Shown piece by piece: positions 20,101 to 52,120 of a stretch of DNA of 64,000 bases. How positions within the stretch are numbered: the first letter of the stretch is position 1; every line of letters begins with the position of its first letter. Source of the stretch: Blasia pusilla. Taxonomy: Eukaryota. The stretch spans positions 9,858,001-9,922,000 of the forward strand of contig CM114271.1 of the NCBI GenBank assembly GCA_050084515.1, given 5' to 3'. The translations under genes and the position numbers were made by a program. The notes beneath the pieces are model-generated. The model was not told the origin of the DNA. It searched no databases and was given only the letters and a program-made list of their open reading frames with translations.

Positions 20101-20384
20101 GATCTATACGAGGAGGTGTATATGACTCAACCACCTGGATACGAGCATCCCAAGTTTCCATTTCGTGTATGCAGGTTGAAGAAAGCTCTATACGGGCTCA
20201 AACAAGCTCCAAGAGCTTGGTATGGCAAGATTACATACGTCCTACAAGAGTTGGGTTTCAGGGTATGTGATTCTGACTCCTCGTTATATGTCTTGAGAGA
20301 ATAAGATCATACAGTTCTCATTGTGTTGGATGTTGACGATCTCTTGATAACTGGGAGTATTGAAGAAATGGTACCACAAGTCCA
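17117..20384 (+). pseudogene. Copia polyprotein, 5' part (gag, zinc knuckle, protease, GAG-pre-integrase, integrase, RT to the DD motif), with in-frame stops
   Basis: KLDEQNYNVWKFRMK, CNYCGIKGHYAKFC, WYIDFSASNHMT, WHKRIGH, ELIHNDVW, YKARLVAKGY, MDVKNAFLNG, LKKALYGLKQAPRAW, DVDDLLITGS. Confidence 0.93.
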
Positions 20385-21019
20385 GGGCTGGTATTCCGGC
20401 AGGGCAGAGGAAGAGAGGAGAGGAAGAGAGGAAGAGAGGAGAGTCTCTCTTAAAAAAAAGGGCCAAATCCGCCTCCTCTCTTCAAACTTTTTTGACATAT
20501 TTGAAATTTTTGTTTGCTTTCAAATTCATGAAATCTTTAGAAAAAAAAATAGACATCATAAGACCACTACAAACATTTTTCCATCACTCTCCATGTGAGC
20601 CTAAGTTTCTTCACATTGCCTGTCTCACTCTACAGTAAGGTGTGCCCATGGGTATTTTTGTTGGAGGACCATTGGCAAATAATTTGACCGGAAGTAGCAA
20701 TCTCATCTCAATGAAAGGTTCAAATAAAGACCAACTTTGTGAAATGTGAACACAGGAGACGATAATTAAACCAAAATATTGTTAGTTGTGTGGAGTAAAG
20801 AGGAACTGATGTCCCTTCATTCAGATCCTAAATCTGATAAACCGAGAAGCTACATCCCTCCCAACCCCTCGGAATTTAACAGGTTCCAACTCTTGCAACC
20901 CATCAGAATCATATGGCTTGCATCCTTTGCAAGCAAGCTCACCATAACAAAGGAAAGATTTTGAGAAGTGATTCCATTCCACCCTGCACCCGAAAATCCA
21001 ACTGTTTGGGAATCCGAAA

Positions 21020-22150: not shown

Positions 22151-22197
22151 CAAACGCTGCAGTCAAGCTGGGTCCTTGAGTTCTTTGAACTCACTCG

Positions 22198-25100
22198 TCA
22201 TCGTTCGAGAGCTCTTCCAGAATTACTGTCGGCCTTGCCCTCCCAATTTTTCGGAATCGTGGGAAGTGACGATGGTATCACTACCAATGGTGGGTCTGGA
22301 ACCGGAGCTCTTGGCTTTGGAGAAGAGTTGTACGCCCCAACTAGCCTGTCCTAATCTGCCTTTGCCTCTTTGCAAAGATCAAACAGTTGCTGCCTTCCCT
22401 CAAGGCAGAGAATGTTCCTGCCACTCTACCAGGCGCCTCTGATGCTCGCCCCTGAAAGGCCCACTAAGTCAAACACCAAGTCACTCGGCCTTGAGCAGAG
22501 CTCGATGAGCGTTTGCATCAGGGCTGGCGACTTTTCCCTTCCTCTAAGTAAGGGGGTACCGTCTTGCATGTAAATTCCCAAGGGGGAATTGTATAAACTA
22601 TCTAAGCTGTACCCATCGAAGCATGGATCCACAGGATCCAAGATCTTAAACACCTGGAAGTTGTGCTCGGGCTGAACAAAGCAGTGAACATAGGAGTGGT
22701 CCATCTGTAAAGAAGCACGTTGGAAACAATGTCAGCAACAAGAAAGAGCTACTTGACCACTGGTCTACTCTCAGTATGGTGACATAATGTGCAACATGTC
22801 CCCAAAGAACTTTGCTTAATCCCAGAGAACTTCGTTACAATCCTAACATTGGAGCAACCTGTCGGAGTCCGACGGGTTATTTTACAAGTGTCTTGTGACT
22901 TTTTTGTCCATGAGCAACCCGTCGGAAGGCGACAAGTTGCTGGCTTAGAGCAGCCCATGGTTGGCTAAGTGCAACCTGTCGCTTTCAGACCGGTTGCAAC
23001 ATTCCAGAAACACAAGGAAAAAGCATAAGCACTTGCAACCCGTCGGGTTCCGACAGGTTGCATTCATCCAATGGAGACTTATGGTAAATTTGCAACCCGT
23101 CGCTTTCAGACGAATTACACCACCGAAGTCTCCAGCTCGAACAATCTGACGGGTTGCATGTAGAGATGGAACCCGTCGGAGAAAGACAATTTGGATATGG
23201 ATTTAGAGGCCTTACCCGAATTTGACTCGTCGCAGATCGGAGTGGGTACTCGTTCTTGATGACCCACGATTGCACCGTCCTCCACTTCAGCGACCTCTTG
23301 ACGCACTGCAGGTTGAAGAGCTCGTCCTTGCTCCCTCCAGTCAAAACTAAGAAACAGCCCCTGTCATTGAGATAAGCGTTTGCAAAGTAAAACAGGAGCG
23401 CGATCTGGTCATAAGAAAGAGGGACATTCCAGTATAGGACCCCGTCGGACGGATTCTCGTCCCACAAGCGCAACCTTGAGGGCAAATCAGCGATGAGGAG
23501 ATCCACCGCCACCTCTTCGACCTCCCCATGGACCGTCGAGGGAGTGTGCCCGTTTCGTTGAAGCTTCCATCCCAGCGTTGTCAATTTCTCGATGGCGGGT
23601 GTCGACGCTTGTGAACTGAAACTTTTTAGCTCATCCAGAAGATTACTGCATTGAATGATGACGCTTGTCCGGGTCGTTGTTTCTCTATGTCTTCCCAAGG
23701 ATGATGGAGTGTATTCCGCATCATGGTCTGCTCCTTGGGACAACCCTGGCGCCTCTCGCTTCCGCTTCTTCCGAGTCTGCGGTCGGCTTGTTGGGGTCTC
23801 TATTACCTCAGACTCTGGTGGAGATTTTTTTTGCGGAGAACCTGGTCTGACCCTCTCTCCCTGCTTGCCCGGACGATTTCGGCCCTCGCCTTGAATTCTC
23901 AGCCTCTCTTTGGGAAGACTCGGCCTCGGAATTCTTCGATCCCCTCGCCTTGGCTTTGAGACCCGTTGTAGATTTGTCCTTGCGATGACAACCTTGGACA
24001 CCAACTCCGTTGTCTCGAGGGCTTGCTCCTCCGCATCTCCTTCCAAAAAGTCTTCAGCCTGCACGAAATTGGGGATGCCGTCCCTACCAGCGGTCACTGC
24101 ATCATAGAGCAGGCGTAGATTTTTCTCGGTTATTTCTTCAGGGTTGTTGAAGTCCAGCCAGATCAGGCAATTCTCCACCTCCCAGTTGGACATGCTTTGA
24201 GCCATCTCCATGTCGTACATGGAAAATCTCTCTCCATCAGGCGGAGAATCCCACAGTTTGCAGGCTGTCGGTATTTTTTGCCATGTACCTACATTCTTAC
24301 AATGGACGAGATACCTGAACACCATCCGTTGGGCAGCTCTTAGTTGAGATGCATCGACCGCCTGCTCTTGAAGATCTCGATTCTTCTTTGCAAAATCCCT
24401 TTTCTTCGCCTCTATTTCTTCATCAAGGTTTGCTTGAGGGAGGATGCGATCCTTGAACATCGTCTTGAAGCCTGGGTTTTTTATAGGCTTGTCCCACATG
24501 TCATCCAGCCAAAGTTCAAAATCTTCAACACTCTCCAGGTTTGTTTCCTCCGGAACTGGCTCTATTCTTTTCAGCTCGGCTTGGAGATCCACGAGCATGG
24601 ACTTCCCGAGAAGCCGCAACGCGTCCCAGAATGACCATTCACGGAGCCAATGGGAGATCACTGGATCAGAGACACCCGGAGGATGGTGTGCCACCCTCTT
24701 TTGAGCCTCTATGCCCTCGAGACTGATTTTCATAAGTCGGATTCTCCTAAATTCCGAAATTCCGGACAAGGCAAATCGATGGACGCGGTCGAGAGACACT
24801 TTCTCCCCAATCTGACTCTGCGGATCTTCATCCCTCTTCCGCTGGTGCTTGATTATCGTCTTCATCTCCTTGTAGAAATTGGGGCCAAGTTCGGGGTTGA
24901 GAATGGCGATGTAGCGCTGCATCTTGTTTGCCGTGTTCTTCATAGCTGCAGATACTACAATTTGGATGAATTTAGCACGCTCAGACAGAGCCACTTTCTC
25001 CCTCCGCTCCAGCTCCAATGCAACACTCTTCTTGGCGGCTTGTATCTTCGACCAACAAAGGATTGTCACGGTTGCATCTTGGGAAATAAATGTATTTGCC

Positions 25101-27096
25101 CAAGTCTTTTTTTAGTTATTTGAGCACCCTTTGCCAGCATCTCATTTACAAGGGCGTCGCCCAAGAACCCCTTGTACTCTGCCGGATGCGTCGTTAGCAC
25201 TTTCTTCACCCGATCGCAATCTTGGATCCAGTGGTGGGTGACATTCCCCTCCGATACAATCCTGCACGTCCAAACTCAATATCAAAATTTTTGCAAGCTA
25301 CATGGGTTCCTGCAACCCGTTGGACTCCGATAGGTTGTCACAGCTCATGGCCGGAATGTTAGCTATGGGCTAAATTTTGCAACCCATCAGAGTCTGACGG
25401 ATTGCATTAAGATTTGTGATTGCCTGGTTTCAACCCATCGGACTCCGACGGGTTGTCAGATAATTTGTATTTAGAGAGTTGTCTCCGCAAGAAAAGTGAA
25501 CATATCAACCCGTCAGAGTCTCACAAGTTGCGCAATTTCAATTAAAGCTGCAATTTGACTCCAAAAATCTAACTCCCTTACTCCGATTACCTTCTCGTGT
25601 TGGCAAATGCAACCTTTCGGACTCGGACGAGTTGCTTTCGGCCAAAAATATCCTAAACCAATGGTTTGTCGAACAACTCGTCGGACTCCGACAAGTTGCT
25701 TTCAGCCAAAAACATCCTAAAACAGCGGCCAGTTGAGCAACTCCTCGGACTCCAACGAGTTGCTTTCGGCCAAAAAATCCTAAAATAGCGGCCAGTCGAG
25801 CAACTCGTCGGACTCCGACGAGTTGCTTTCAACCAAAAACATGCCAAAAATAGTGGCGAGTCAAACAAGTTGTCGGAGTCCGACGGTTTGCGGCAAGAGG
25901 AAACTTACCTGTTCATGGCATGCATTGCCATCTCCACCGTCGCCATGTGAAGAGGGTATGGATTTAGCACGACTGCCTTCACGCAAAAATGCGCCTCCAA
26001 TTAGTTTGGGCGCTCCTCTGCAAACTAGGTCCACGCCATGAACCTGTGGTTTCCATCCCAGATGAAGAAATACAGGTTCCGCATCCAACTTAATCGCCCT
26101 TCTGAATTCCTGACCTCTCATCCTCCAGAATGTGTCGAGCGCTTCCAAGTCCTCCTTCGTAACCAGCGCTTGGGTTCCATGTTCATCGTAAGGCTCAACA
26201 TAGAACGGAGGGAAGCTGTCGACGTAGGATGCTGTCGCTGCCGATTGTTTTAGCTTCGCAATATCCTCGTCAGACTAAATTTCGCGGACGTACTCCATTG
26301 TCCGCAATCGGCAAAGTGGAATTCTCGGGGCGTTCTGGCCCTCCATCAGTACCATCTGCTTTACCACCTGTCACAACCGGGAAAAGGTCAATAAACTACA
26401 CTGAATTGCCAATGAATTGCAACATGGCCCTTCACATAACTCAAAGATCCAAGATCGTTTCTTACTCGCTCAAAGATTGGGTCGGTGTCTTGGCCAGCCA
26501 ACTGCTGTGGGACAGCAGATGGCAAGTCCACTCGAAACTCGTCGATCCGATAGAGGTCGATTTCTTCCGTCGGGATAAGAGACGAGGAAGATCGCTCTCC
26601 TGCTTCTTCAGCGATGTCCACCATCTCCACGCTGGCGGTCCTCATGACCTCATCGTCCGTCACTCGAACTTCGTCCGTTTCCGCTATATTGATTGTATCC
26701 CTGGACTTCATCGGGGACATTTCCTGCATCTCAACACTTTCGGTTGGATGGGCCGGGCTTTCTTCAATGGCAATCGCTTTTTCCCTTTGAGCTTTTGCCA
26801 ATTCTGCTCTCCTCACCGACGCGTCCAGACGCTTCTTCTCACGCTTTTCATCGGCGATCCTTTTCTTCAAGGCCTGCGACGCCTTAGCCTCTGCGTTCTG
26901 TTTTTTGAACGTCTCCTTAACACGTTTTGCAAGAAGCTCCTGCTTGTGCATCTCCGCTTCCCTTTCCCGCTCCTTGATTTCTTGCTACTTTATCTCATTG
27001 GCCGAACGAGGCCCTGGAGACGGTGACGCAAGAGTCCTCCCACCCTAGGGGAGTGAAGCTCCCAACCTTGCTTGCTTGATTTTTTTTCCTCGTCAT
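22198..27096 (-). pseudogene. Arm A ParB/Srx-like + N4/N6 DNA-methyltransferase-like fusion gene; exons ~27096-26466, 26367-25909, 25261-23216, 22704-22198
   Basis: GT-AG introns at the same positions as in arm B. Exon 2 contains LYFFIWDGNHRFMAW. Exon 3 ends with VAVDLLIADLPS...WNVP...YLNDRGCFLVL. Exon 4 has EKSPALMQTLIELCSRPSDLVFDLVGLSGASIRGAW*SGRNILCLE. A few frameshifts and stops are present. Confidence 0.72.
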
Positions 27097-27503
27097 TGTT
27101 CCCAAAAATGCCTCCTATGGACAAGGAAATTTCTTTCTGTGCATGATCCGTCGCCTTGATGAGTCGCCTTGCTGATGTCACGATGAGTCGGCTTGATGAG
27201 TAGCTCGAATCGTCTCGCGATCCTTTGCTCGAATCGTCTCACGATGAGTCGCGGTGTAAAGCGCCCCTTGGTATCTGGTCAGCCGCTGTGGGGAAGAGCA
27301 ATTGAGATCGCGAAACAAAAAACCGGAAATGAGCGAACCCTCGGCTATTTATACTTTTCAAGCCGTTGGGCTGACCGTTGGGTCGCATCGTCATTCCGAC
27401 GGTGACGTGTCGGCCGTTATGGAAGTCTGGACGTGAAAAACACCAACCCGACGGCTCTGACGGGTTGCACTCTTTCCGTGGGTTCCAGGCATCCGTCCTC
27501 CTA

Positions 27504-27931
27504 GCAACCCGTCGGAAATCGACAGGTTGCGCGCCTCCGCCATCTTTGGGCAAGAACGCGGGCTACCAGCGGAACTCGTCAGAGGCCAACAGGTTGCACG
27601 CTTCCTTCATGCAAGTGTTACAAGGCGAGGCACTTGCGCAACCCGTCTGAGGCCGACGGGTTGCGCGCCTCCGCCGTCTTTGGGCAAGAAAGCGGGGCAC
27701 CCGCGCAACTCGTCGGAGGCCGACGGGTTGCACGCTTCCTTCATGTAAGCGTTACAAGGCGAGGCACGTGCGCAACCCGTCTGAGGCGGACGGGTTGCGC
27801 GCCTCCGCTGTCTTTGGGCAAGAAGGCGCGGTACCCGCGCAACTCGTCGGAGGCCGACGGGTTGCACGCTTTGCTTATCTTGGGGTAATAGGCAAGGTAC
27901 CAAGGCAACCCGTCGGTTAGTGACAGGTTGC
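27504..27931. repeat. Phased array of the 27-bp palindrome, 67-bp period (arm A intergenic region)
   Basis: Motif starts at 27504, 27571, 27638, 27705, 27772, 27839 and 27905. Confidence 0.9.
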
Positions 27932-28449
27932 ACGCTTTTCTATCCCTCGGGTAACAATGCGACAACGCATAGTTCTGAGGCAACCCTTAGCAATCCGATG
28001 GGTCACAACATCTACTCTGAGTTGGACAATCCTCCAAAAGTCCCCAACGATTGGTTGCCTTTGCAAATGCAAGTGATGTCTCGTGTTTGATGCTAGCAAA
28101 ATCGACTCAAAAGACCATTGGTCGGCAAGAAGGGGGTACCAACCCATCGGACTCCGACCGGTTCCAACTTGCATTGGGACACGGAAACAAAAAAATAGAA
28201 GTGGGTGATTCCATGCAACCCACGTCTCTGATTCCCAAATTCTGCAACCCATCGGACTCTGTCAGGTTGCAACAGAATTGAATCCATCATGTTAGACATT
28301 TTCACCTACAAAACTTCATCTTGTCAATCAAATTCTGTCAGGAGAATCTGAGTCCCTATTCACTATAAATTAAACATCCTCATTCTCATTCCTAATCCCA
28401 TTTTTATCCTCATTCTTATTCTCAGTCCTCCCAATGGAATCTTCTGGGA

Positions 28450-30460
28450 ATGGATAATTATGTGAAGCTCACTTGTGGTAGTCATCTAGCGGCCCTTCCT
28501 CAATCAAAAATCGTTCGACCGCAAGCTCGTGAGTCTTTCAAAGCAATGGATGAAAAATTTCTCTCCGTTCGATTTCTTCTCCAAATTGGAACCATCTTTG
28601 TATCCAAGGATATTAGGGTAAAAGGTACATAGGAAATAATAGGTGAGACAGTCCAGCCAGTGATTGGAGACCCTAAAGTATGGAATCTCCTACCTCTAGC
28701 AAATGATCAATACAGAGTTTACGGCTTGCCTCTGAATTCCTCAATTTCCCAAGCAGACGGTCGAGAATTAGCTAGTGCACCGAGCTCTACGTTTGTAACT
28801 CCTAGCTCAATAGATCCGGCATCGACTCCAACTTCACACGCTCGTAACAATGTTGTACTTCCTGAAGACATCCGGATGTCGTCGACCTCAGTGGATCTGT
28901 CGGACACCAATTGGGCCCTCTGTCCCTCTTCTCGTTCCTCTTGCGAGTATCAGGCAATAGTTTGGTATCGTCTTTGGCCTTGAAAATATTCAAGCACATT
29001 CTTGTCGACAAGCTGCCGCCCATATACGATGGTAATTGTATTTTTGAGTTGCCTCCACTTGCTGCTCCTACTCAAAAGAAAGATGGAGGACGCTTGAAGG
29101 GTATGGACAAAAAGTCTGATTATCATCGATGGTGCAGGCTTCAACAGACTAGTGCTTCAATTCTAGATGGTCCTTGGATTGTCTCCCGACGCCAATGCGT
29201 TGGAGCCTTGGAGTGTAGAAGTCCACCATGCTTGTATCTAGAGCGCAACGGGCGGGTGAATACGTCGCAATTCTCCCCCAAGAATGCAGAAACTCCATAT
29301 GAGGTCGGTGCCACCATACCGCCGGGAGGCCATTGATGTCCTCATTGTCAGGCATCCCCTTTCTGCGTTGGAGCGTGTCCTGCATACATATTTTTCATTG
29401 TCCACGACTTGGGCTCCACGTCAGATTACACAAGGCTGGAAATTCATTTTGGCTCCCACACTCATCCTGTGACCGATGCAATTCAGAGACACATCAAGGA
29501 GGATGTGGCAAAGAAAGTGACCAAGGTCTACAAAAACTCTCCGGGCTCAAAGCCTGGAGTGATCAAGCTCACAACAACATCACAAATTTGTGAACAATTG
29601 CTTGGAATCCTTGTACAAGGCAAGATCACGGTTGCTAAGGAGAAACAACTATGGGAAAATCTCGCATTTCTCGCTGATCCTGAATGCTTCCCGAATTTGC
29701 TGCGTCAAATACAAGTACTGGATGGAAAGACCGCCGAAATGGATGCCATTGCCAGAATCAAGGCCAACTCCAGATTTCCATTCATTCAGAGATGGCAGTT
29801 CTTGGGTCAAGGAGGCGAGGGATCCAGGGCCTATGTCTTCAAAATGTAAACCACAGGTCCGTCGAGTGGCCTCGATCTTATAGATCGAATGAGGGAAGGG
29901 GAAGATCTTTACGGCAGCTGGGTAAAATTTGATATTTGCTACAGAGTGCTGAACGGATGGTTGACGATGGGTGCTCATGTTTATGACCATGTGGAGAGGG
30001 ACTCAAAACTATATTTGTCTGTGAAGTAAAAGCAGAAGACATTGGCAGTTTCAAGATGTGATGGTTACTCTTATTGGAGGTGGTGAAGGAAAACAAAAGG
30101 CCACCTCCGGAAATTTATGGGTTCATGGCGGAAAATGCACAACCTGGGTGGATTGCTATCAGGGAAGTGTTCTGGGGTGGAGAGGTTCAACCAGAGAGGG
30201 AAAGGCCGGATGCTTTCCATTGGCAACAGTCTCTGACCCGGTACATCAAATCTTGCATCAAGGAGAATAAGAGGACAGAGCATGTCACTCTGCTCCAAGG
30301 CTGCAAGGACATCAAAACCTTGAAACAAGCCATGGAATGCCAAGAAGAACTTCATGGGTGGTGGAGGAAGCATGCGATTGAGGGGAAGTACAAAGAGTTG
30401 TGCTCTTGGCTGAGTTGGTGGACTGTACGTATGAGACAATGGGGAAACTTCATGCGGCAC
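28450..30460 (+). pseudogene. Arm A Mutator-like DDE transposase with GCM/WRKY-like zinc finger, 3'-truncated, with stops
   Basis: RRQCVGALECRSPPC...CPHC...C...HFGSHTHP, then WVKFDICYRVLNGWLTMGAHVYD, YGFMAENAQ and ERPDAFHWQQS (C/D-x2-H motif). TATA-like CTATAAAT at ~28363. Confidence 0.72.
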
Positions 30461-30569
30461 ATGAGTTCACTATTTCCTCTTGTCAAACTCACGCTCAGAA
30501 CTGCTGGAAAAGTTGCAGCTCAAGTTGAGAAGCGTGGGAACTATAGGGATTTCAAACCAAAGAAACCAA

Positions 30570-30735
30570 GCAACTTGTCGGATGCGACAGGTTGCCCGAG
30601 TGTGCAACCCGTCGGAAACAGACGGGTTTCCCGAGTGTGCAACCCATCGAAAACACACAGGTTGCTCGAGTGTGCAACCCGTCGGAAACGGATGGGTTTC
30701 CTGAGTGTGCAACCAGTCGGAAACCGACGGGTTGC
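30570..30735. repeat. Array of the 27-bp palindrome with ~35-bp period, in the central spacer of the foldback
   Basis: Motif starts at 30570, 30604, 30639, 30674 and 30709, separated by ~8-nt ccgagtgt-like linkers. Confidence 0.88.
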
Positions 30736-30986
30736 ATCAAGAATATTGATGCAACCCGTATAAAAGTATGCAAGCCTCATGTATACAAGGCCTGCAAGGC
30801 CGGATGGGTTTCAGATGACTTGCACTTGGATCTTCTAGCCCGGAGTGGCCAAAGGTTCTTGCAACCCGTCATAATCAGATGGGTTGCAATAGGTGCTTCC
30901 TGGGTGTTGCAACACGTAGGGACCTGACATGTCGCAGAGTCGTTCATGGGATGCCTCGGCCTTGCAACCCGTCTGGTTAGACATGG

Positions 30987-32885
30987 TTCCTGGCATTCCA
31001 TGGCCTGCTTCAAGGTTTTGCTGTCCTTGCAGCGTTGGAGTAGAGTGACATGCTCTGTCCTCTTATTCTCCTTGATGCAAGATTTGGTGTACCGGGTCAC
31101 AGACTGTTGCCAATGGAAAGCATCCAACCTTTCCCTCTCCGGTTGAACCTCTCCACCCCAAAACACTTCCCGTATAGCAATCCACCCAGGTTGTGCATTG
31201 TTCGCCATGAACCCATAAATTTCCGAAGGTGGCCTTTTGTTTTCCTTCACCACCTCCAATAAGAGTAACCAACACATCTTCAAACTGCCAACGTCTTCTG
31301 CCTTTACTTCACAGACAAATATAGTTTTGAGTCCCTTCTCCACATGGTCATAAACGTGAGCACCCATCGTCAACCATCCGTTCAGCACTCTGTAGCAAAT
31401 ATCAAAGCTTACCCAGCTGCCGTAAAGATCTTCCCCTTCCCTCATTCGATCTATAAGATCGAGGCCATTCAACGGACCTATGGTTGACATTTTGAAGACA
31501 TAGGCCCTAGATCCCTCGCCTCCTTGGCCCAAGAACTGCCATCTCTGAATGAATGGAAATCTGGACTTGGCCTTGATTTTGGCGATGGCATCCATTTCGG
31601 CTATCTTTCCATCCAGAACTCGTATTTGACACAACAAATTCCCGAAGCATTCAGGATCAGCGAGAAATGCGAGATTTTCCCATAGTTGTTTCTCCTCAGC
31701 CGCCGTGATCTTGCCCCGTCCAGGGATTCCAAGCAATTGTTCACAAATTTGTGATGCCGTTGTGAGCTTGATCACTCCGGGCTTTGAACCTGGAGAGTCT
31801 CTGTAGACCTCGGCAATTTTCTTTGCCACATCCTCCTTAATGTGTCTCTGAATTGCATCGGTCACAGGATGATTGTGGGAGCCAACATGAAGTTCCAGCC
31901 TTGTGTACTCTAACCTGGAGCCCAAGTCGTGGACAATGAAAAATATGTATGCAAGACACGCTCCAACGCAGAAGGGCGATGCCTGACAATGAGGACATCG
32001 ATGGCCTCCCGGCGGTATGGTGGCACCGACCTCGTATGGAGTTTCTGCATTCTTGGGGGGGAATTGTGACGTATTGACTCGCCCGTTGCGCTCTAGATAC
32101 AGGCATGCTAGACTACTACACTCCAAGGCTCCCACGCATTGGCGGCGAGAGACAATCCAAGGACCATCTGGAATTGAAGCACTAGTCCGTTAAAGCCTGC
32201 ACCATCGATGACAATCAGACTTTTTGTCCATACCCTTCAGGCATCCTCCCTCTTTCTTTTGAGCAGGAGCAGCAAGTGGAGGCAACTCAAAAATGAAATT
32301 ACCATCGTACGTGGGCATCAACTCGTCGACAAGAATGTGCTTGAACATTTTCAAGGCTAGAGACGAAAGCAAACTATTGCCTGATACTCGCAAGAGGACC
32401 GAGTAGGCGGACAGAGGGCCCGGTTGGTGTCCGACAGATCCACTGAGGTTGATAACATCTGGAATCTCTTCAGGAAGTACAACATTATCATGAGCGTGTG
32501 AAGTTGGAGTCGGAGCTGGATCTACTGAGCTAGGAGTTGCAAACGTAGAGCTCGGAGCACTAGGAAATTCTCGACCGTCTACTTGGGAAACATACGAATT
32601 CAGGGGCAAGCCGTAAACTCTGTATTGACCATTTGCTAGAGGTAGGAGATTCTATACTTTACGGTCTGTAGTCACTGGTTGGACTGTCTCACCTATTATG
32701 TCTTCCGTACCATCCACCCTAACATCTTTGGATACAAAGATGGTTCCAATTTGGAGAAGAAATTCAACAGAGAGAAAATTTTCATCCACTGCTATGAAAG
32801 ACTCACGAGCTTGCGGTCGAACGATTTCTGATTGAGGAAGGGCCGCCAGATGACTGCCACAAGTGAGCTTCACATAATTATCCAT
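30987..32885 (-). pseudogene. Arm B Mutator-like transposase, truncated after ...KQAMECQE
   Basis: ORFs 32652-32885, 32190-32609 and 30777-32135 are closely similar to the arm A copy (WVSFDICYRV, YGFMANNAQ, DAFHWQQS). Homology stops abruptly at ~30987. Confidence 0.72.
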
Positions 32886-33280
32886 TCCCAGAAATTTCGT
32901 ATGGGAGGAGGGTGAGAATGAGAATGAGAATTTTTAATTTATAGTGAAAAGGAAAACAGATATTCATGACAGATTTTTATTGACAAGATGAAGTTTGGTA
33001 GGTGAAATTGTCTGACACAATGGATCCAATTCTATTGCAAAGATTCAATTGTGTTGCAATGTGTTACCGAATTTGGGAAGCAAGATTGTTGGAACCTGTC
33101 GGAGTCCTGGTAACTCAACAATTAACCCAAGCTAAGCGAAGCCTGCAACCCGTCAGCTTCGAACGGGTTGCACGCTTCTACCTTACCTTCAAACGCAAAC
33201 ATGGTCAAAGCTAGCAACCTGTCGCTCTCCAACGAGTTGCTTGGATACCGCTCCTTCTTGCCTGAAGATGCCGGAGGATT

Positions 33281-33843
33281 GCAACCCGTCGGCATCAGAC
33301 GGATTGCCCAATTATCTCACGGTGTAACACTTACATGAAGGAAGCGTGCAAAACGTCTGTTCCCGACGAGTTCCGCGGGTGGCCGCACCTTCTTGCCCAA
33401 AGACGGCAAGGCGTGCAACCCCTCGCCCTCCGACGGGTTGCGCAAGGGCCTCGCCTTGTTTCGCTTACATGAAGGAAGTGTGCAACCTGTCGGACTCCGA
33501 CGAGTTGTGCGGGAAGCCCGCATTGTTAACCCTTGACGAGGGAAGCGTGCAACCCAACGGTCTCCGACGGATTGCGCGGGTACGTCCCATTCTTGTCCGA
33601 AGACGGCGGAGGTGCGCAACATGTCGGTCTCCGACGGGTTGCGCGGGTACGCCCCGTTCTTGACCAAAGACGGCGGAGGCGCGCAACCCGTCGGAGACCG
33701 ATAGGTTGCGCGGGTACCTCGCGTTCTTGTCCGAAGACGGCGGAGGCGCTCAACCCGTCGGTCTCCGACGGGTTGCTCGCGCACCTTGCGTTATCTTCCC
33801 AGGACGGCGGAGGCACGCAACATGTCGGAGTCCGACCGGTTGC
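33281..33843. repeat. Phased array of the 27-bp palindrome, 67-bp period, 9 units (arm B intergenic region)
   Basis: Motif starts at 33281, 33348, 33415, 33482, 33549, 33616, 33683, 33750 and 33817. Confidence 0.9.
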
Positions 33844-34188
33844 CATTTTTCACGTCCGGACTTCCGTAACGTCGCCGTCGAAAGGACGACGGGACCCAAC
33901 GGTCAGCCCAACTGCTAGAAAAGTATAAATAGGGCAGAAATCACTCATTTCTAGTTTCTCATTTAGCGATCTCCATTCCTCTCTCTCCCGCGCAGCAGCT
34001 GATCAGATACCAAGGGGCGTTCCACACGGCGAGTCATCGCGAGTCGATACGAGGGAACGAGAGCGAGACGGTTCGACCAAACGAGAGCGAGACGGTTCGA
34101 CTGAACGATCGCGAGACGATTCGAGCTTCCCATCAAGGCGACTCATCTCGACATCAGCAAGGCGATTGATCAAGCAATTCCGGGAAAA

Positions 34189-37100
34189 ATGACGAGGAAA
34201 AAAGTTCAAGCAACGAAGTCTAGGAGCTTCACTCCGAAGTCCATTAGGACTCCTGCGTCAACATCTCCAGGGCCTCATTCGGTAAATGAAATTAGGCAGT
34301 AGGAAATCGAGGAGCAAGAAAGGGAAGCGGAGATGCACAACTAGGAGCTTCTTGCGAGACGTGTTCAAGAGGCGCCGACAGACGTAACGCAGAGGCCGAG
34401 ACGTCGCAGCCTTGAAGAAAAGGATCGCCGATGAAAAGAGAGAAAAGAAGCGCCTGGACGGCGTCGAGTGAGAGCATTGGCTAAAGCGAGGAGGGAAAAG
34501 CGATAGCCATTGACGACAGCCCTGCCCGTCCAACCAAAAGTGTTGAGATGCGGGAAATGTCCCCCATGAAGTCCGGGGACACAATCAACATAGCGGAAAC
34601 GCCAGAAGTTCAAATCACGGACGATGAGGTCATGAGGACCGCCAGCGTGGAGATGGTGGATATTGCCGAAGAAGCCGGAGAGCGTTCATTCTCGTCTCCA
34701 AGCCCGGCGGAAGACATCGACCTCTATCAGATCGACAAGTTCGATCGATTTATAGTCTGTATCTCGACACATTGGCTGGTGAAGAAACCGACCCAATTTT
34801 TGAGCGGGTAAGAGAGGATCTGGGTTTTTTGAATTATGTGAATTACAATTCATTGGGAATTCAGTGTAGCTTATTGATCTTGTCCCGGTTCCGACAGGTG
34901 GTAAAGCAGATGGCACTGATGGAGGGCCACAACGCTCCGAGGATTCCACTCTGCCGATTGTGGACAATGGAATACGTCCGCGAAATTCAGTCCGACGAGG
35001 ACATTGCAAAGCTAAAACAATCGGCGGCGACAACATCCTACGTCGATAGCTTTCCTCCCTTCTATGTTCTGCCTTACAACGAGCATGGAACCCAAGCCCT
35101 GGTTACGGAGGAGGACTTGGATAAGCTCGACACATTCTGGAGGATGAGAGACCAGGATTTCAGAAGGCAAGTAGAGGGCACGGAATTCAGCTGGATGAGG
35201 AATCTTTATTTCTTCATCTGGGATGGAAATCACATGTTCATGGCGTGGACCAAGTTTGCAGAGGAGCGGCCCAACTCCTTGGAGGCACATTTTTGCGTAA
35301 AGGCAGTGGTCCTTCCTCCATTCCCTCATCAAATGGCGACGATGGAGATGGCAATGCATGCCATGAACACGTAAGTATCTTCTTGCTCCTAACCGTCGGA
35401 CTCCGACAAGTTTTTTGGGTTGGCACTGTTGTTGGGATGCTTTTGGCCAAACGCAACTCGTTGGACTCCGACCAGTTGCTCGATTGATGAATGGGTTAGG
35501 TTATTTTTTGCTGAAAGCAACTCATCGAATTGCGACGAGTTGTTCGACTGACCACATGTTAAGTAAGTTTTTGGCCCAAAGCAACCCGTCGGAGTCCGAC
35601 GGGTTGCTCGACTCGCCGCCTTTTCAGGATGTTTTTTGAAGAAAGCAACTCATCGGACTCCGACGAGTTGTTCGACTGACCACAGGTTTAGTATGTTTTT
35701 GGCCCAAAGCAACCCGTCAGAGTCCGACCGGTTGCATTCGGAAGTTGGTTTAGCAAATTTTGCGTCAAATTGCAAGTTTCCATTCAATTGCGCAACCTGT
35801 CGGACTCCGACTGGTTGATATGTTCACGTTTGATACGGACTATCTGACAACCCGTCGGACTCCGACGGGTTGTTATGTTCACGTTTGATATGGACTATCT
35901 GACAACCCGTCGGAGTCCGACGGGTTGAAACCAGGCATTCACAAATGTGAATGCAATCCGTCGGACTGCGACGGGTTGCATCATTTAGCTCGTTGCTAGA
36001 ATCCGACCTTGAGCTGTGACGACCCGTCGGAGTCCGACGGGTTGCAGGAACCCATGTAACTTACAAATTTTTTGACGAGTTGAGTTTGGATGTGCAAGAT
36101 TGTATCAGAGGGGAATGTCACCCACCACTGGATCCAGGACTGCAATCGGGAAAAGAAGGTGCTTACGACGCACCCGGCAGAGTACAAGGGGTTCTTGGGC
36201 GATGCCCTAGTAAATCAGATACTTGCAAAGGGTGCACAGATAAAGAAGAAAACTTGGGCAAATAAGTTTATTTCCCAAGATGCAGCCCTAACCATCCTTT
36301 GCTGGTCAAAAATACATTCCGCGAAGAAGAGCGCTGCACTGGAGCTGGAGCGGAGGGAGAAATTATCTGGGTGTGAGCGCGCGAAATTCATCCAAGCTGT
36401 AGTATCTGCAGCCACGAAATACACGGCGAGCAAGATGCAGCGATACATCAGCATTCTCAACCCCGAACTTGGTCCGAAGTTTTACAAGGAGCTTAAGGCG
36501 ATTATCAAGCGCCAACGGAAAAGGGATGAAGATCCGCAAAGTCGGATTGGGGAGAAAGTGTCCCTGGATCGCGTGCATCGGTTTGCGTTGTCTGGCATAA
36601 GCGAGTTTAGGAGAATCCGACTGATGAAAATCAATCTCGAGGGCACAGAGGCCCAGAAGAGGGCGGCACACCATCCTCCGGGTGTGTCCGATCCAGTGAT
36701 CTCCCACTGGCTACGCGAATGGTCGTTCTGGGACGCGTTGCGGGTTATCGGGAAGTCCGTGTTGGACGGTCTGCAAGCGGAGCTCAAAAGATTAGAGCCC
36801 ATTCTGGATGAAGCAAACCTGGAAAGTTATGTAGATGTCGAGGTTTGGCTTGACGACATCCGGGACAAGCCAATAAAAAATCCAGGATTCAAGACAATGT
36901 TCGAGGTTTGCGTCCTCCCGCAAGCAGAGCTTGACAAAGAAATCGAGGGGAATAAACGGGATCAAGCAAAGAAGAAGCGAGATCTACAGGAGCAGACGGA
37001 CCTGCGAGATCTACAGGATTCAGTTCGAGTAAAAGTTGCCCAACGGATGGTCTTCAGGTACCTCGTCCACTGTAAGAATGTAGGTACCTGGGGAAAATTA

Positions 37101-39142
37101 CCTGCAGCCTTGAAATTGTGGGCTTCGCCGCCTGATGGAGAGACATTTTCCATGTACGACATGGAGATGGCGCAACACATGTCCGATTGGGAGGTGGAGA
37201 ATTGCCCCATTTGGCTTGACTTCAACGATCCTGAAGACATCACCGATAAGGATTTACGAGTGCTTCATGATGCAGTGGCCTCAGGACAAGACGACATCCC
37301 CAATTTTTTGCAGCCTGAAGACTTCTTCGGAGGAGATGCGGAAGAGCAAGCCCACGAGACAGTTGACTTGGCTTCCAAGGTCCGTACAGCCAAAGACAAA
37401 TCCACAGCGGGTCTCAAAGGCAAGGCGAGGGGAGGGAAGGAATTCCGAGGCCGAGTCTTCCCAAAGAGAGGCTGAAAATTCAAGGCCAGAGCCGGAATCG
37501 TCCGGGCTAGCGGGGTGAGAGGGTCGGACCAGGTCCCCGGCGAAAAAACCCCACCAGAGTCAGAGGTCATAGAGACCTCGACAAGCCGTCCGCAGACTCG
37601 AGAGAAGCGGAAGCGAGAGGTGCCAGGGTTGTCCCAAGGAGAATACAATCCATCATCCTTAGGAAGACACAGAGAAACAACGACCCGGACAAGCGTCCTC
37701 CTTCAGTTCACTCCTTTACTGGATGAGCTGAAAAGCTTCATTTCTCAAGCGTCGACACCAGCCATTGATAAATTGACAACGTTGGGACGGAAGCTCCAAC
37801 GAAACGGGCACGCTGCCTGGACGGTGAATGGAGTGGTCGAAGAGGTTGCGGTGGATCTCTTGATCGCTGATCTGCCCTCAGGGTTGCGACTGTGGGGCAA
37901 GAATCCGTCGGACGGGTACCTGACTGGAATGTGCCGCTCTCTTATGACCAAATCGCGCTATTTTTCTCCTTTGCGCCTATCCGAGTGAGGGGTCGCTTCT
38001 TAGTGTTGACGGAGGAGCGAGGAAGAGCTCTTCAACCTCCAGGGCGTCAAGAGGTCGCTAAAGTGGAGGACGGCGCAATCGTAGATCATAAAAAATGAGT
38101 ACCCACTCCGATCCGCGACGAGTCAGATTCGGGTAAGGCTCAATTCCTGTAGTATAATCTCAAATATATTTTCAAATTCGGGTAAGGCTAAATGCGTGTA
38201 AATTTCAGATAGTATATCTCCGTTGTTTTTGTCCGTGAGCAACCCGTCGGAAGGCAACGGGTTGCTGGCTTAGAGCAGCCCATGCTCGGCTAAGAGCAAC
38301 CCGTCAGTTTCCGACGGGTTGCATCTTTCCCAGAAACACAGGGAAAACCGTGGTGTACCTGCAACCCGTCGGGTTGCAATTGCTTTTGGTTTTTCCTTAT
38401 GTTTCCGGAAAGCTGCAACCCGTCGGAAAGTGACCTGTTGCTCTCAGCCGAGCATGGGCTGCTCTAGGCCAGCAACCCGTCGCCTTTTGACGGGTTGGTC
38501 AGGGACAAAACAACCCGTAGGACTCTGATTGGTTGCTCCAAAGTTAGTAATTGAAAAAAGTTCTCTAGGGTCAAGCCGACTTCTTTGGTGACGTGTTGCA
38601 CATTATGCCAAGTTGCTGACATTGTTTCCAACGTGCTTCTTTACAGATGGACCACTCCTACGTTTAGTGCTTCGTTCGGCCCGAGCACAATGTCCAAGTG
38701 TTCAAGATCCAGGATCATGTGGATCCATGCTCAGATGAGTACAGCTTAGATAGTTTGTACAATTCCCCCCCGGGAATTTACATGCAAGACGGTACCCCAC
38801 TTCTGGGAGGAAGGGAAAAGTCGCCAGCCCTGATGCAAACGCTCATCGAGCTCTGCTCAAGGCCGGGTGACTTGGTGTTCGACTTAGTGGGACTTTCAGG
38901 GGCAAGTATCAAAGGCGCCTGGTAGAGTGGCAGAACATTCTGCCTCGAGGAAGGCAGAATCGCTTGACCTTTGCAAGGAGGCAAAGCAGAATACGAAAGG
39001 CTCGTTAGGCGTACAACTCTCCACCGGCCGAGAGCTCGGTTCGGCACCCACCATTGGTAGTGACTCCATCGTCACTTCCAACGATTCTGAAAATCATGAG
39101 GGCAAGGCCGAAAGTAATTTTGCAAGAGCTCTCGGACGATGA
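34189..39142 (+). pseudogene. Arm B ParB/Srx-like + N4/N6 DNA-methyltransferase-like fusion gene; exons ~34189-34807, 34898-35370, 36098-38132, 38647-39142
   Basis: TATAAATA at ~33924 and start MTRKKVQ. GTAAG donors at 34808, 35371 and 38133. Motifs IPLCRL...YVRE...FFIWDGNHMFMAW, VAVDLLIADLPSG and EKSPALMQTLIELCSRPGDLVFDLVGLSGAS. Several stops and frameshifts. Confidence 0.72.
35390..36045. repeat. Cluster of 27-bp palindromes filling intron 2 of the ParB-MTase-like gene (mirror at ~25310-25890)
   Basis: A perfect copy GCAACCCGTCGGAGTCCGACGGGTTGC lies at 35581-35607, with about ten further variants at roughly 55-65 bp spacing. Confidence 0.88.
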
Positions 39143-40974
39143 CGAGTGAGTTCAAAGAACTCAAGGACCCAGCTTGACTGTAGCGTTTGGAGTAGGGAGT
39201 TATTTGATGATGAGGCAAAAGATTTCATAGAATAGATCAAATGTACAGTTTTGAGCTTTTTTCAGATGATATAAAGGAGATGATTTTTTTGAACGATGGT
39301 GGTGCTTGTAAAAGTTTGCTGAACATTTTTTATGTCTTTTCGAATGTGATCGTCTTTGTACTCCGCGGACTTCTATTTTGCAAACCGTCGGATTTCTCCT
39401 GCTTGCAACTTTTCACTTTTTGACGACAAAGACCTTTTTTACCACTTCAGGCAACCCGTCGGATTTCGGCAAAGCTGTTGCGATCGACTCTTTCCTGTTG
39501 GTCCAACTTAAGAGGATCTGGCGGGCTTCTTCCTTGGCACCTTCCCTCAACTCGTAAAGGCGGCGTAGGCTTCTTTTCTTCTCTCAGCACGTGTTGGATT
39601 CCTACTACCTGTACGATTGCCATAATGGTATTACCAAGGACGGAGCACATATTGATACTGGATGGGTGTCACATTGCAGAGCGTACAAGGTATACTGCCG
39701 AGGAAGGCGGAGGGACTCAAATCAGGTTACATGGGACCGTTATGGCGTACCTAGGGGGGGCCAAGGCTCTAGAATTCGCCAACATTTTTTATCCCTTCTA
39801 CAATCGGCCAGAGGAGCCACTTGTATCCTAGGACATTCCTTTTGTACTGTCACCGAGGAGAGTTAGGAGTAAATTTGTAGATGACGAGGCTGAAGAAATC
39901 ATAGACTAGGTCAAATGTACATTTCCGAGGTTCCTTCGGAGGTAATAAAGGACGAGATTTTTTCTACCCATAATGGTGTTTGTAAAAGTTTGCTGGAAAA
40001 TTTTCTTGGACTTGTGGATTGTGTTCTTTTAGCTACTCAGAATTACAATTTTGCAACCCGTATGATTCTGACGGGTTGCAACTTTTTGCTTTTTGCCCAC
40101 TGCAACTTTTTAACCATTTCAGGCAAGTCGCCGGATTCGGCAGTTGACTCGCTTGAGTAATGGGACTCTTTCCTGTGAGACCAACCGACGCATTGTGGCG
40201 GGCTTCTTAACTTTTGGCTCGTTCCCTACATTCGTCAAACCGATTCTGTGCTTCTTTTCTTGTCTAAGATGTGCAGGATTCCTACTACCTGTCGGATTGC
40301 CATTTCGGATTCCCAACCTGTTAGATTTTCGTGGATGCAGGGTGGAAGAAAATCACTTCTAAAAATATTTCCTTTCTTATGGTGAGATTTCTTACGGGTT
40401 GGGAGGGGTACAGCTTCTCGGTTTCTCAGCTTTAGGATCTGAATGAAGGGACATCAATTCCTCTTTACTCCACACAGCTAACAATCTTTTGGTTCACTTA
40501 TCCTCTCATGTGTTCACATTTCACAAAGTTGGTCTTGAGCAAACACCATTAGTAACCAACAGAAAGTTGGTTATGGGGCAATTCAGGGGAGGCCATGATG
40601 CAGGCAACAATCCCTGCAAAAAGAGAGATTGGCATCCGGGTGGTCCTCCAACAAAAATACCCATGGGCACTGCTTTTTGTAGACCGAGACAGGTAATGTT
40701 AAGAAACTTAGGCTCACATGGAGAGTGATGGAAAAATGTTTGTAGTGGTCTTATGATGTCTACTTTTTTTTCGTCCCCAAGAAAAAGGAGGTTTTTTTAG
40801 GGCCAAATGTGGACCACTACCTACTCTCTTCTAAAGATTTCCTGAATTTGAAAGCAAACAAAAATTTCATATATGTCAAAATTTTTTGAAGAGAGGAGGC
40901 AGATTTGGCCCTTTTTTTGACGAGAGACTCTCCTCTCTTCCTCTCTTCCTCTCTCCTGCCAGAATACCAGCCCC

Positions 40975-41830
40975 CGGGGAACTCAAGTACTTCCTTGGTA
41001 TTGAGTTTATCAAGGTTGGAGAGAGCATGTGGTTACTACAACGACAATATGTTCTTCATATGCTTTCAAAATATGGTATGACGGCTTGTAAGCCAATCTC
41101 TACACCGTTGGACCAGAGCATGAAGCTAAGAGTGGATGAAGGAGAGCAGCTTGCAGATTCCAATATGTTCAGGCGCATGGTTGGAAGTCTGATCTATCTA
41201 ACTATAACCAGAGCAGATTTGAGCTATGTTGTTGGCCTAGTGAGCCAATTTATGCAAGCACCTCGAAAACCTCACCTTGATGATGTGAGGAGGATTATGC
41301 GGTATGTGAATTTATCTATTCAATTTGAACCTTCTCACAGTTTTCAATTACATGGATTCACAGATGCTGATTGGGCAGGAAGCGTGTCTGATTGACACTC
41401 CACATCTGGTTATTCATTTACTTGGGGAAGCGCAACTATAAGTTGGGCTTCAAAGAAGCAACCTACAGTTGCTTTATCTTCAACAGAAAGTGAGTATATA
41501 GGAGCAACCAATGCAGCATGTGAGGCGGTGTGGCTTCATCGATTACTTGTTGAAATAGATGTTAGTAACTTAGGACCTAGTGTAATATATGCAGCCAATA
41601 TTAGTAGCATCAAGCTTGCTAATAACCCTCTGTTTCATGCTCGTACAAAACATGTTGAGGTGCACTATCATTTTATCAGAGAGAAAGTGCTTGCAGGAGA
41701 AATTGATCTTGTATATATAGGTACTGATTAGCAAATTGCAGAAATCTTTACAAAGTCATTGTCTAGAGATAAGTTTCAGATGTTTAGAAAGGATTTAGGC
41801 GTTAGAGATATCGAAATGAGCTTAAGGGGG
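40975..41830 (+). pseudogene. Copia polyprotein, 3' part (RT C-terminus and RNase H)
   Basis: GELKYFLGIEF, VGSLIYLTITRADLSY, GFTDADWAGS, WASKKQPTVALSSTESEY, HARTKHVEVHYHFIRE. Confidence 0.93.
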
Positions 41831-43680: not shown

Positions 43681-44227
43681 GTTGCGGCACACATGAGGAA
43701 AGCGTTCGGATCTATTTGCAAAATGGACGATGCGACAAAACACTAGGGTGCGTATTTTTTACTCCTAATTGTAACCACGTCCATCTGGCCGATTTGACGT
43801 TGAGAGTGAAAACTATATAAGTTTGGTTGCCCATATCTATTGTCAAAGGGCTCTTCTTGTAGTGAGATGGATCCTAGGTGGCATTGCTGGTAATATCCTA
43901 GGTTGATGTGGCATATTTAGTCCTAGGTGGCTTGCTGCGTCAGAGCGGGCATGGGAGGGAATGGACACCCATATAGCATACAAACGTTTGGTGTTTGGTA
44001 CCCAAGTAAGGTGTGTTGTTTTTGGCGGGAGAGAGTGTGCACTTGAGTGGGATGGTCGGAGTTTCTCCAAGAGTGGGAAGTTCAAAGATTAGGGGATTGG
44101 GGAGGTCAGGAGGCTGAGAACAATTTGTTGTGAACGTTGTGAAGACTTTTACGCCTAGACCGCAAGCTTCGAGTTTTTTGTGAAGACTCTGCTCTCTAAA
44201 GATTGTTTCATCTTCTCAGCCGCGGTT

Positions 44228-44405
<178 letters not shown>

Positions 44406-44559
44406 CTTTGCGATGTTCTCTCCCTCTTTGCGCAACATCTGGAAGAGCCTTGCAAAATGACGTTCAACTTCTTCTCGGACTTCAAAGATCGCTCCTCTCT
44501 GCAATGTTGTCTTGCTATTTCCCCGAGCATGTCTGAATAGCTTGGTGGCTCCGATGGTT

Positions 44560-44963
44560 GAAACTTCCTACGATGTGCCGGTGTTGAAACTAGACCTACA
44601 CTTTGTCGCACGCGCTCTTCATCTACAAACCACTCATCGTTCACTTTGCTGACACTCCAGTTGAAGTATCGCAGGAGAATACCAGCTTCAGTCCTTGACA
44701 GGGAAAGGAAATTTGTGATTTTGGTCATCGCTTCTTCTTGTTGCTGGCGAATGTCCCTCTCATTGAGAATTGTGTAATTGGACTGAGGAAGCCTAGAACT
44801 CACATGAACATCAATTAAAGGGAATCATCGAAACCGTAGTCTGGCTCATCATCGTCATCATCACTGCCCATGGTATTCTCACTCGCCTTGTCGTCCTCTT
44901 CATTCATATCGTAGAAGTCCCCGTTCCATACCAAGCATCCTGCATTTCATCTTCGGAGTCCAT
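44560..44963 (-). pseudogene. ARI: 5' fragment of an ARIADNE-family RBR E3 ligase gene
   Basis: MDSEDEMQDA, an acidic tract ending DDDDDEPDYGF, then NYTILNERDIRQQQEEAMTKITNFLSLSRTEAGILLRYFNWSVSKVNDEWFVDEERVRQSVGL. Frameshifted and ends before RING1. Confidence 0.85.

Positions 44964-45938: not shown

Positions 45939-52120
<6,182 letters not shown>

Follow-up and report, generated by a model that had tools for sequence, protein, structure and literature searches.

A decayed four-exon gene with a methyltransferase-like domain and an altered active-site motif, probably an accessory gene of a Mutator-like transposon in Blasia pusilla

Bacterial-type amino-methylases are rare in eukaryotes, and the known cases, N4CMT of bdelloid rotifers and DN4MT1 of Marchantia, are each notable. 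Excerpts of the two source reports present both proteins as active N4-methylcytosine (4mC) methylases (bioRxiv 10.1101/2021.02.12.428880; PMC8885841), the first assigning a TSPPY motif to DN4MT1 and the second, in the same limited text, presenting it without extra domains. Methylase domains have also been found within mobile elements, as in the DIRS1 retrotransposons, which according to an excerpt of PMC4738411 carry an inactive one. Accessory genes of transposons offer further points of comparison. VANC proteins of Arabidopsis VANDAL elements bind noncoding regions of specific transposable elements, and part of one account describes their targets as often being tandem repeats and VANC as inducing loss of DNA methylation throughout the elements (PMC5735166), while DUF3723 (PF12520) is described, again in an excerpt, as an accessory gene that travels with giant fungal Starship transposons (bioRxiv 10.1101/2021.12.13.472469). 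Here we analyse a four-exon gene at 34189-39142 (+) of a 64,000-nucleotide stretch of Blasia pusilla DNA (the window), which is the outer gene of arm B, one of two transposon arms arranged head to head. In this gene the fold of N4CMT and DN4MT1 appears on a plant DNA transposon, in an intron-bearing accessory gene that has been under purifying selection and that has a conserved, non-canonical active-site motif.

The window holds two diverged copies of the gene. In arm B the proposed exons, all on the forward strand, lie at 34189-34807 (exon 1, a low-complexity, charged N-terminal region with several stops and frameshifts and a tentative start codon), 34898-35370 (exon 2, a ParB_N-like segment in an open frame), 36098-38132 (exon 3, the helical middle domain followed by a charged linker and by the first half of the methylase-like domain) and 38647-39142 (exon 4, the C-terminal half of that domain). 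The arm A copy occupies 22150-27082 on the reverse strand, and its exon 3 lies within a 708-codon open frame (22985-25111). An earlier note on this DNA had quoted a series of motif strings, and translation located them where it had placed them. Arm B reads IPLCRL at 34943-34960, WDGNHM at 35219-35236, VDLLIADLPS in the motif IV region of exon 3 (37851-37880) and, in exon 4, EKSPALMQTLIELCS at 38815-38859 followed by the motif I region DLVFDLVGLSGAS at 38869-38907. Arm A, on the reverse strand, reads WDGNHR at 26043-26060, VDLLIADLPS at 23477-23506 and GRNILCLE at 22399-22422, so that the arginine of the DGNHR motif is intact in arm A and replaced by methionine in arm B, just as the note had claimed. 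Its GRNILCLE string is also real, but belongs to arm A, arm B having GRTFCLEE instead. The splice sites that it proposed fared similarly, in that all three donors (34807/GTAAGA, 35370/GTAAGT and 38132/GTAAGG) and the acceptors of exons 2 and 4 (ACAG/34898 and TTTACAG/38647) are canonical, whereas the exon-3 acceptor, which is GCAG/G in correct phase in arm A, reads GCAAG in arm B and was therefore lost there through a G>A change at 36097.

Relatives of this gene are rare. A phmmer search with the arm A 708-codon frame against 1.84 billion protein representatives returned 31 proteins at E<=1e-3. The search with the longest match gave 21 proteins, all of them hypothetical proteins of Riccia sorocarpa, which places at least 21 paralogues in one Riccia genome, and a family-profile search gave 6 matches, one of them named (Riccia fluitans); every named relative comes from a Riccia liverwort. 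A separate homologue search with the 708-residue frame of the window found nothing. Riccia and Marchantia presumably share an order of liverworts. The literature searched, which did not extend to supplementary files that may hold relevant lists, contained no description of the family, and the excerpt of PMC4738411 that lists several eukaryotic N6A-methylase clades does not have the plant family among them.

All of the Riccia proteins are computational gene models, and many are truncated. Two of them, P0032 (1244 residues) and P0046 (1104 residues), nonetheless have all three parts in one protein, in the order disordered N-terminus, IPLCRL...WDGNHR domain, helical region, charged linker and C-terminal domain, and in the last of these D-h-P-S/T-G comes first and GDIVIDF.GGWGAT...CSRCCI..E later. 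Moreover, homology between the window gene and the Riccia proteins is continuous over the proposed junctions, AMHAMN[T/R] / IVSEGNVTHHWIQ corresponding to AMHNLNASSHATVQYDWIQ, and SQIR/MDHSYVHCFV, at the junction of exons 3 and 4, corresponding to RNMKVFHSKVEVFCK. These comparisons support the assignment of the four exons to one intron-bearing gene.

The C-terminal domain was compared with known structures and with phage methylases. In the AlphaFold2 (AF2) model of P0046 this domain (residues 790-1073) has mean values of the predicted local distance difference test (pLDDT) of mostly 61-88 in 10-residue blocks, dropping below 50 at residues 940-955 and 973-1005. Foldseek comparison of the model with the PDB gave 41 matches at E<=1e-3, and all the matches listed are PF01555-type DNA methylases, headed by M1.HpyAVI (E 6.6e-7, TMt 0.66-0.76) and followed by CcrM, MboIIA, M.BceJIV, TTHA0409, N4CMT, RsrI and PvuII. 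A wide VIA-align search, which is independent of Foldseek, gave Z values of 16.9-14.3 for 11 such enzymes over P0046 residues 790-1070, 8.5-12 for MT-A70 enzymes, and at most 6.8 for all others. For comparison at the level of profiles, phage methylase genes were gathered by means of a DNA pattern for motif I, giving 120 loci with 124 open reading frames (ORFs). The plant C-domain profile was aligned by hhalign with the ParB-fused phage methylases at Prob 95.3% (E 2.1e-8, 191 columns) and with the unfused ones at Prob 94.5% (E 8.2e-8), DlPT being placed on dPPY and the motif I regions being in register. PF01555 is found at E<=0.1 in 6 of 19 family members (best 1.1e-5), and P0045 has a precomputed PF01555 label; the family profile found nothing significant among PDB sequences, the best match being 8s9m at E 1. 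The resemblance of this part to methylases thus exceeds chance, and the model of the Riccia homologue P0046 and the family profile show that the C-terminal domain truly has a beta-class (PF01555-type) amino-methyltransferase fold, in which motif IV precedes motif I.

The active-site motif of this domain is altered. None of the 20 family sequences that cover the site has the (D/N/S)PP(Y/F/W) form of motif IV, with neither a proline pair nor an aromatic residue being present, and the S/T-S-P-P-Y of eukaryotic 4mC methylases is absent from all 20 as well. At motif IV, 19 of these sequences have D-[LMIF]-P-[STK] and one has H-L-P-S, the window having DLPS, and both this replacement and the VP.WN that follows it are conserved across diverged members. 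The plant family does not retain HPT.KP, another motif of the phage profile. Motif I reads DF.GGWGAT in Riccia members, with ..CIA.E after strand 2, DVTAHSGES in P0046, and DLVGLSGAS, in which the first glycine is lost, followed by ILCLE in the window. In the active amino-methylases, as far as these are known, the flipped base is always positioned and stacked by the proline pair and the aromatic residue. Because motif IV is replaced in every member seen, catalysis is doubtful, and we read the protein as a probable non-catalytic pseudo-enzyme.

No other part of the family is as conserved or as confidently modelled as the helical middle domain (P0046 residues ~270-660, corresponding to 36098 to ~37300 in the window). 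It is all-helical in the AF2 model, with pLDDT mostly >90, and it has no clear structural match (best Z 6.6). The N-terminal domain is more difficult to place. The ParB/Srx superfamily is defined by a nucleotide-binding motif of the G-x-H/R-R type that follows the central strand. Most of the 22 aligned sequences spanning WDGNHR retain it (exceptions include WEGNHR, WDGNHQ, WDGNQQ, LDGNHR and WDGNYR), and hhalign places it on the GHgR of a phage ParB_N profile. In 21 of the 124 phage ORFs the distance from the start to the catalytic motif is 135 residues or more, and 18 of these 21 were kept by eye as having a ParB-like N-terminus (L010, L047 and L082 were dropped); ten of the 18 were scanned with Pfam, which called PF01555 in all ten and ParB_N in five at E<=1e-3. 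Alignment of the first half of the plant domain alone with the phage ParB_N set gave P 0.001 and Prob 21.6%, and removal of an insert of ~40 residues gave P 0.0014 and Prob 17.9%. In the latter alignment four elements are in register, namely IPLCRL with pi..L, LKRSF..GY with ia.sI..fG, WDGNHR with iaGHgR, and AMHNLN with iadNk. In 314 column shuffles the score never rose to the observed 27.5 (mean 12.4, sd 2.3, max 21.5), and hhalign controls against unrelated non-ParB profiles gave P 0.02-0.72. On these alignments the ParB ancestry of the exon 2 domain appears likely but unproven.

Both gene copies in the window are pseudogenes. In addition to the lost acceptor, the frame of arm B exon 3 is stopped at 37473-37475 and shifted more than once near 37913, and exon 4 has a stop directly after HSYV and a TAG at 38923-38925 that is followed by a frameshift. 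In arm A, exon 2 has lost 14 nt through a deletion and contains a TAG, and another TAG follows GAW at 22426-22428. The arms differ in exon 3 at a synonymous divergence (dS) of 0.62 with a ratio of nonsynonymous to synonymous divergence (dN/dS) of 0.27 over 546 codons, so that most of the divergence accrued while the protein was under selection. Despite that distance, the TAG after GAW, which lies inside the motif I helix, is common to both arms, and is either ancestral to both or arose twice through C-to-T changes at CAG; the inner genes of the two arms differ alike, RL-stop-R against RLQQ and GGH-stop against GGHR. DNA reads from other copies have an extra G at 37913-37914 in 24 of 86 cases and an extra A in 11 of 85, and some paralogues are therefore without the arm B frameshift. 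Three RNA runs with the same species label yielded 38, 67 and 49 reads, nearly all of them 95-99% alike, and no splice joints were seen at the three junctions.

The two gene copies lie within a head-to-head pair of diverged copies of one DNA transposon family (20386-40972; 20.6 kb in total), as seen by blastn between the arms. Arm A extends over ~20386-30346 and arm B over ~30987-40972, with a unique centre at 30347-30986; 30987-39465 aligns with 30346-21874 at 78-90% identity, and homology between the arms extends to 40953 and 20418 at 85-94% identity. Each arm has an inner, MULE-like (Mutator-like element) transposase gene and, divergent from it, the outer four-exon gene. The inner gene of arm B (30777-32651, reverse strand), which has a CxxC...HxH zinc-finger-like N-terminus, is interrupted by one in-frame stop (32190-32192) and truncated at the centre of the pair, and that of arm A (28400-30763, forward strand) has a stop after ..PPGGH. 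The nearest ESM Atlas clusters to the inner gene are MULE PF10551 (score 0.97, 192 of 256 features shared); Pfam gave no match to it even at E<=10, and the PDB gave no relevant sequence match. The outer ends of the pair, as found by their alignment with one another, consist of GGGCTGGTATTCCGGCAGG at 20386-20404 (+), followed by GA-rich repeats, and of its reverse complement at 40954-40972 (-). These ends are mutually inverted (GGGCTGGTATTC...), but there is only one per arm, and inner ends are absent from both transposon copies. The pair is inserted in a copia reverse-transcriptase ORF (..VDDLLITGSIEEMVPQVQ / element / GELKYFLGIEF), and about 10 copia codons are gone at the join. The copia-type long terminal repeat (LTR) retrotransposon that it splits, with gag, integrase and reverse-transcriptase frames, occupies 17288-20385 and 40973-41395.

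Reads from a DNA run of the same species label show that the family extends beyond this locus. Of 9050 aligned reads, 8874 are only 95-99% alike. Summed depth is ~220-330 over the inner gene of arm B and 40-135 over its outer gene, ~4-35 over the outer gene and intergenic region of arm A (21800-29482), and ~135-160 over the arm A part of the inner gene (29483-30664). Depth far exceeds that of the least-covered bins, which indicates many dispersed copies, and many reads diverge from the window sequence at 30931-30987. Given the paralogous reads and this divergence, the family is multi-copy and the head-to-head junction is peculiar to the locus. The possibility of a simple local inverted duplication of a dead copy was considered and rejected on account of the divergence between the arms (dS 0.62, dN/dS 0.27) and of the strong difference between them in the depth of near-identical paralogues.

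The element also carries numerous copies of a 25-nt palindrome, CAACCCGTCGG-N3-CCGACGGGTTG. There are 46 inverted pairs, 44 with a 3-nt spacer, and all are non-coding. With one mismatch allowed, the half-site CCGACGGGTTG has 77 matches in the window against 0.75 expected, all of them within 20862-40078 and none in the other ~43 kb. The pairs occupy introns 2 and 3, the array between the genes, the subterminal region and the centre. In arm B a cluster of nine palindromes occupies 35454-36044 in intron 2, other clusters are at 33146-33842 and at 38240-38497 (intron 3), and further ones are 3' subterminal; the clusters of arm A are at 22855-23060, 25313-25825 and 27444-28164, and that of the centre is at 30571-30886. 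The intergenic array itself, between the divergent genes at 33363-33843, is a 67-bp tandem repeat of 7.2 units with a palindrome at each unit joint, and its arm A counterpart is at ~27444-27916. Downstream of the arm B gene (39182-40303) are two subterminal direct repeats of ~450 bp, at 39182-39623 and 39859-40303, with 71% identity. The palindromes are candidate protein-binding sites or hairpins. The spacer gives an A-N-T (GANTC) centre, which we take to be the CcrM/HinfI type of site, in 24 of the 46 palindromes. As the other 22 spacers are different, we give this centre little weight as a clue to the target.

Taking these observations together, we consider it reasonably probable, as one joint account, that a multi-copy, Mutator-like DNA transposon of a land plant is present here as two decayed copies in head-to-head orientation, that the region is one of these copies, and that its outer gene encoded a non-catalytic accessory protein of phage ParB-methylase ancestry. 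In the element, the transposase gene would be accompanied by this accessory gene, which has four exons and is transcribed divergently from it. The encoded protein would consist of an N-terminal part, probably a ParB_N/Srx-type module that has diverged very far while conserving WDGNHR, of a large and conserved helical domain in the middle, and of a C-terminal part with the beta-class amino-methyltransferase fold. ParB-methylases of phages and plasmids commonly have ParB_N followed by the methylase, and on that ground the gene most likely goes back to an old capture of such a module, which may later have gained spliceosomal introns. The product might be a pseudo-enzyme with a remodelled active site that binds DNA, and perhaps S-adenosylmethionine (AdoMet), its most likely targets being the 25-nt palindromes in the introns, the intergenic array and the subterminal regions. 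By analogy with VANC, such a protein could help to assemble the ends of the element or shield the element from host silencing. Much of what the earlier note had proposed from the sequence is thereby retained. Its beta-class domain with motif IV before motif I is seen alike by Foldseek, VIA-align and hhalign; its intron-containing single gene agrees with P0032 and P0046, which carry all parts, and with homology that crosses the junctions; and its transposon setting agrees with the MULE-like neighbour, the terminal inverted ends and the many paralogous copies in DNA reads. The ParB/Srx assignment of exon 2 is weakly supported, by an alignment in register with P values of ~1e-3 and Prob of 18-22% and by the shuffles, and there is no Pfam or PDB match. 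The bacterial or phage derivation of the module is plausible from its architecture, but no donor is shown. The suggestion that the element offers a working route for amino-methylases into plants is not supported, given that the catalytic motif occurs in 0 of the 20 family sequences that cover motif IV and that both window copies are pseudogenes.

A number of results weigh against the reading of the gene as a non-catalytic accessory gene of phage ParB-methylase ancestry on a Mutator-like element. A target-site duplication, which in MULEs measures 9-11 bp, is missing from the flanks of the outer ends, and the identification of the inner gene as MULE-like rests on language-model features and on a motif order (FD..., ...DAFHW) read by eye. 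The window pieces alone score 16.4 and 13.9 bits with PF01555, in the motif I part only, and are therefore under the gathering cut-off of 26.7 bits. The link between protein and palindromes is their co-occurrence alone. In addition, parts of the AdoMet loop survive, in the form of GGWGAT in Riccia and of the glutamate kept after strand 2, which leaves activity possible. The protein could then be an active DNA amino-methyltransferase with an unorthodox catalytic loop, marking the DNA of the element, for example at the palindromes, with N6-methyladenine (6mA) or 4mC and thereby regulating transposition or disturbing host silencing by 5-methylcytosine (5mC). The retention of the whole beta-class fold, the conservation of D-h-P-S/T-G and VP.WN across diverged members, the G-x-G loop of the Riccia proteins, the acidic residue kept after strand 2 in both Riccia and the window, and the dN/dS of 0.27 all speak for this alternative, and the GANTC centre of 24 of the 46 palindromes is matched by the presence of CcrM among the top fold matches. 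Set against this are the lack of a proline pair or aromatic residue in all 20 members, the loss of the HPT.KP of the phage profile, the missing first glycine of motif I in the window lineage (GLSGAS), and a palindrome spacer that varies and is not ANT in 22 of 46 cases, so that we regard an active enzyme as improbable. We place a bolder proposal at the same low level, according to which a phage-type ParB-methylase was converted by the transposon family into a protein that reads the DNA of the element sequence-specifically, without methylating it (or while methylating it in an unorthodox way), binds the palindromes as ParB binds parS and either protects the element from silencing or organises the transposition complex; the acquisition might, on that proposal, also be the source of the liverwort 4mC methylases.

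Several results also weigh against a ParB ancestry of the N-terminal domain. Pfam does not call ParB_N in any family member, a PDB search with the family profile brings up neither ParB nor Srx chains at E<=10, and alignment of the whole domain with the 18 phage ParB_N sequences gave P 0.0095 and Prob 4.3%, the best ParB alignments having needed either the first half alone or the removal of an insert chosen by the authors. Column shuffles are, moreover, a lenient null. The AF2 models of the domain are poor (pLDDT 33-76 in P0046; mean 48.7 for exon 2 of the window), and Foldseek with the exon 2 model found nothing at E<=1e-3, that model being unusable and uninformative on the fold. For P0046 residues 93-289 the ESM Atlas ranks DUF3723 clusters first (0.96, 184 of 256 features) and a ParB_N cluster only at 29 (0.91, 123 features shared). 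It is thus conceivable, although we think it unlikely, that only the C-terminal domain is of prokaryotic type and that the N-terminal domain is an unrelated, possibly DUF3723-like, domain of eukaryotic mobile elements, in which case the gene would not descend from a phage ParB-methylase. The helical domain of 380 residues and the disordered linker of ~130 residues, compared with a linker of ~80 residues in the phage fusions, also fit this alternative, as does the hhalign probability, which spans 4-22%. Nevertheless, four conserved ParB_N elements occur in order and in register in an alignment that no shuffle equalled, Pfam does not find DUF3723 at E<=0.1 in any member either, ParB_N is called by Pfam in only five of ten bona fide phage fusions, and DUF3723 could itself hold a ParB-like module. 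MULEs capture host sequence, and the gene might for this reason be a host gene or fragment acquired in Pack-MULE fashion, without a role for the element and with its real function in a cellular copy, as the many truncated Riccia models would allow. Against this, the gene has retained its own introns and full length in two arms that diverged at dN/dS 0.27, it is placed divergently to the transposase gene in the same way in either arm, copy depth in DNA reads is high, and no single-copy cellular homologue appears among the 31 matches in 1.84 billion proteins; this explanation seems very unlikely to us. Least probable of all is that the exons come from two or more separate genes and that the fusion is an artefact of joining neighbouring frames. 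No spliced RNA reads were obtained and the Riccia proteins are computational models, yet the same order of parts recurs in the independent models P0032, P0046, P0043 and P0045, GT-AG sites are conserved in both arms apart from the lost exon-3 acceptor of arm B, and homology runs across each junction.

Elsewhere in the window, a host gene at 1149-5619 with the plant domains DUF3741, VARLMGL and DUF4378 identifies the stretch as plant nuclear DNA, and copia and gypsy frames surround this gene. Direct repeats at 8239-9269 and 14622-15648, ~6383 bp apart, bracket gag-protease-reverse-transcriptase frames and are identical (100%) over the 300-nt and 228-nt families D2 and D4 and 83% identical over the 276-nt D1 pair; repeats and frames together look like a young LTR retrotransposon, and a related copy is at 58259-60042. 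Long coding-like (GAGA/RE)n microsatellites occur at 44216-44824 (-) and 47140-47637 (+), one of them linked to a frame that encodes an ARIH1-type UBA-like domain (PF21235, E 2.8e-7). No Rfam family was found in the window.

The practical result for this window is modest, both copies of the gene being dead. Its wider meaning is that of a concrete example of a mobile element which appears to have kept a prokaryotic DNA-modification module for a new use, with the palindromes as candidate cis sites, and this use can be set beside the systems described above. The phage and plasmid ParB-methyltransferase fusions (PF02195 with PF01555), a build present in 18 of the 124 sampled phage methylase ORFs, have the same order, a ParB_N-type module before a beta-class amino-methylase. 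The plant protein differs from them in its introns, in the helical domain of ~380 residues and the long disordered linker between its modules, in having D-h-P-S/T for DPPY and no HPT.KP, and in its setting on a eukaryotic DNA transposon. N4CMT of the bdelloid rotifer (8s9m/8s9n) resembles the plant family as a beta-class fold in a eukaryote (Foldseek E 1e-4, VIA-align Z 14.6). N4CMT and DN4MT1a/b, the latter compared by description, are however host genes rather than transposon genes, N4CMT carries a chromodomain, and it is the plant family that is without the catalytic motif. METTL14 and the DIRS1 methylase domain share with the plant family a methylase fold in which the active-site motif has been replaced, and METTL3-METTL14 chains are among the weaker fold matches of the P0046 C-terminal domain. 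These proteins nevertheless belong to other methylase clades, MT-A70 for METTL14 and the PCIF1-related group-2 for DIRS1, and the DIRS1 domain is part of a retrotransposon polyprotein and not an accessory gene. DUF3723, whose clusters are the nearest in the ESM Atlas to the N-terminal domain (0.96), is to our knowledge without known function; it belongs to another kingdom and to the tyrosine-recombinase Starships, and HMMER finds no match to PF12520 in any member. VANC is, like the plant gene, a second, non-transposase gene in a MULE. The likeness proposed here is one of setting: the palindrome arrays of the plant element are confined to its non-coding parts, and binding and anti-silencing by its accessory protein are a conjecture that the VANC system suggests.

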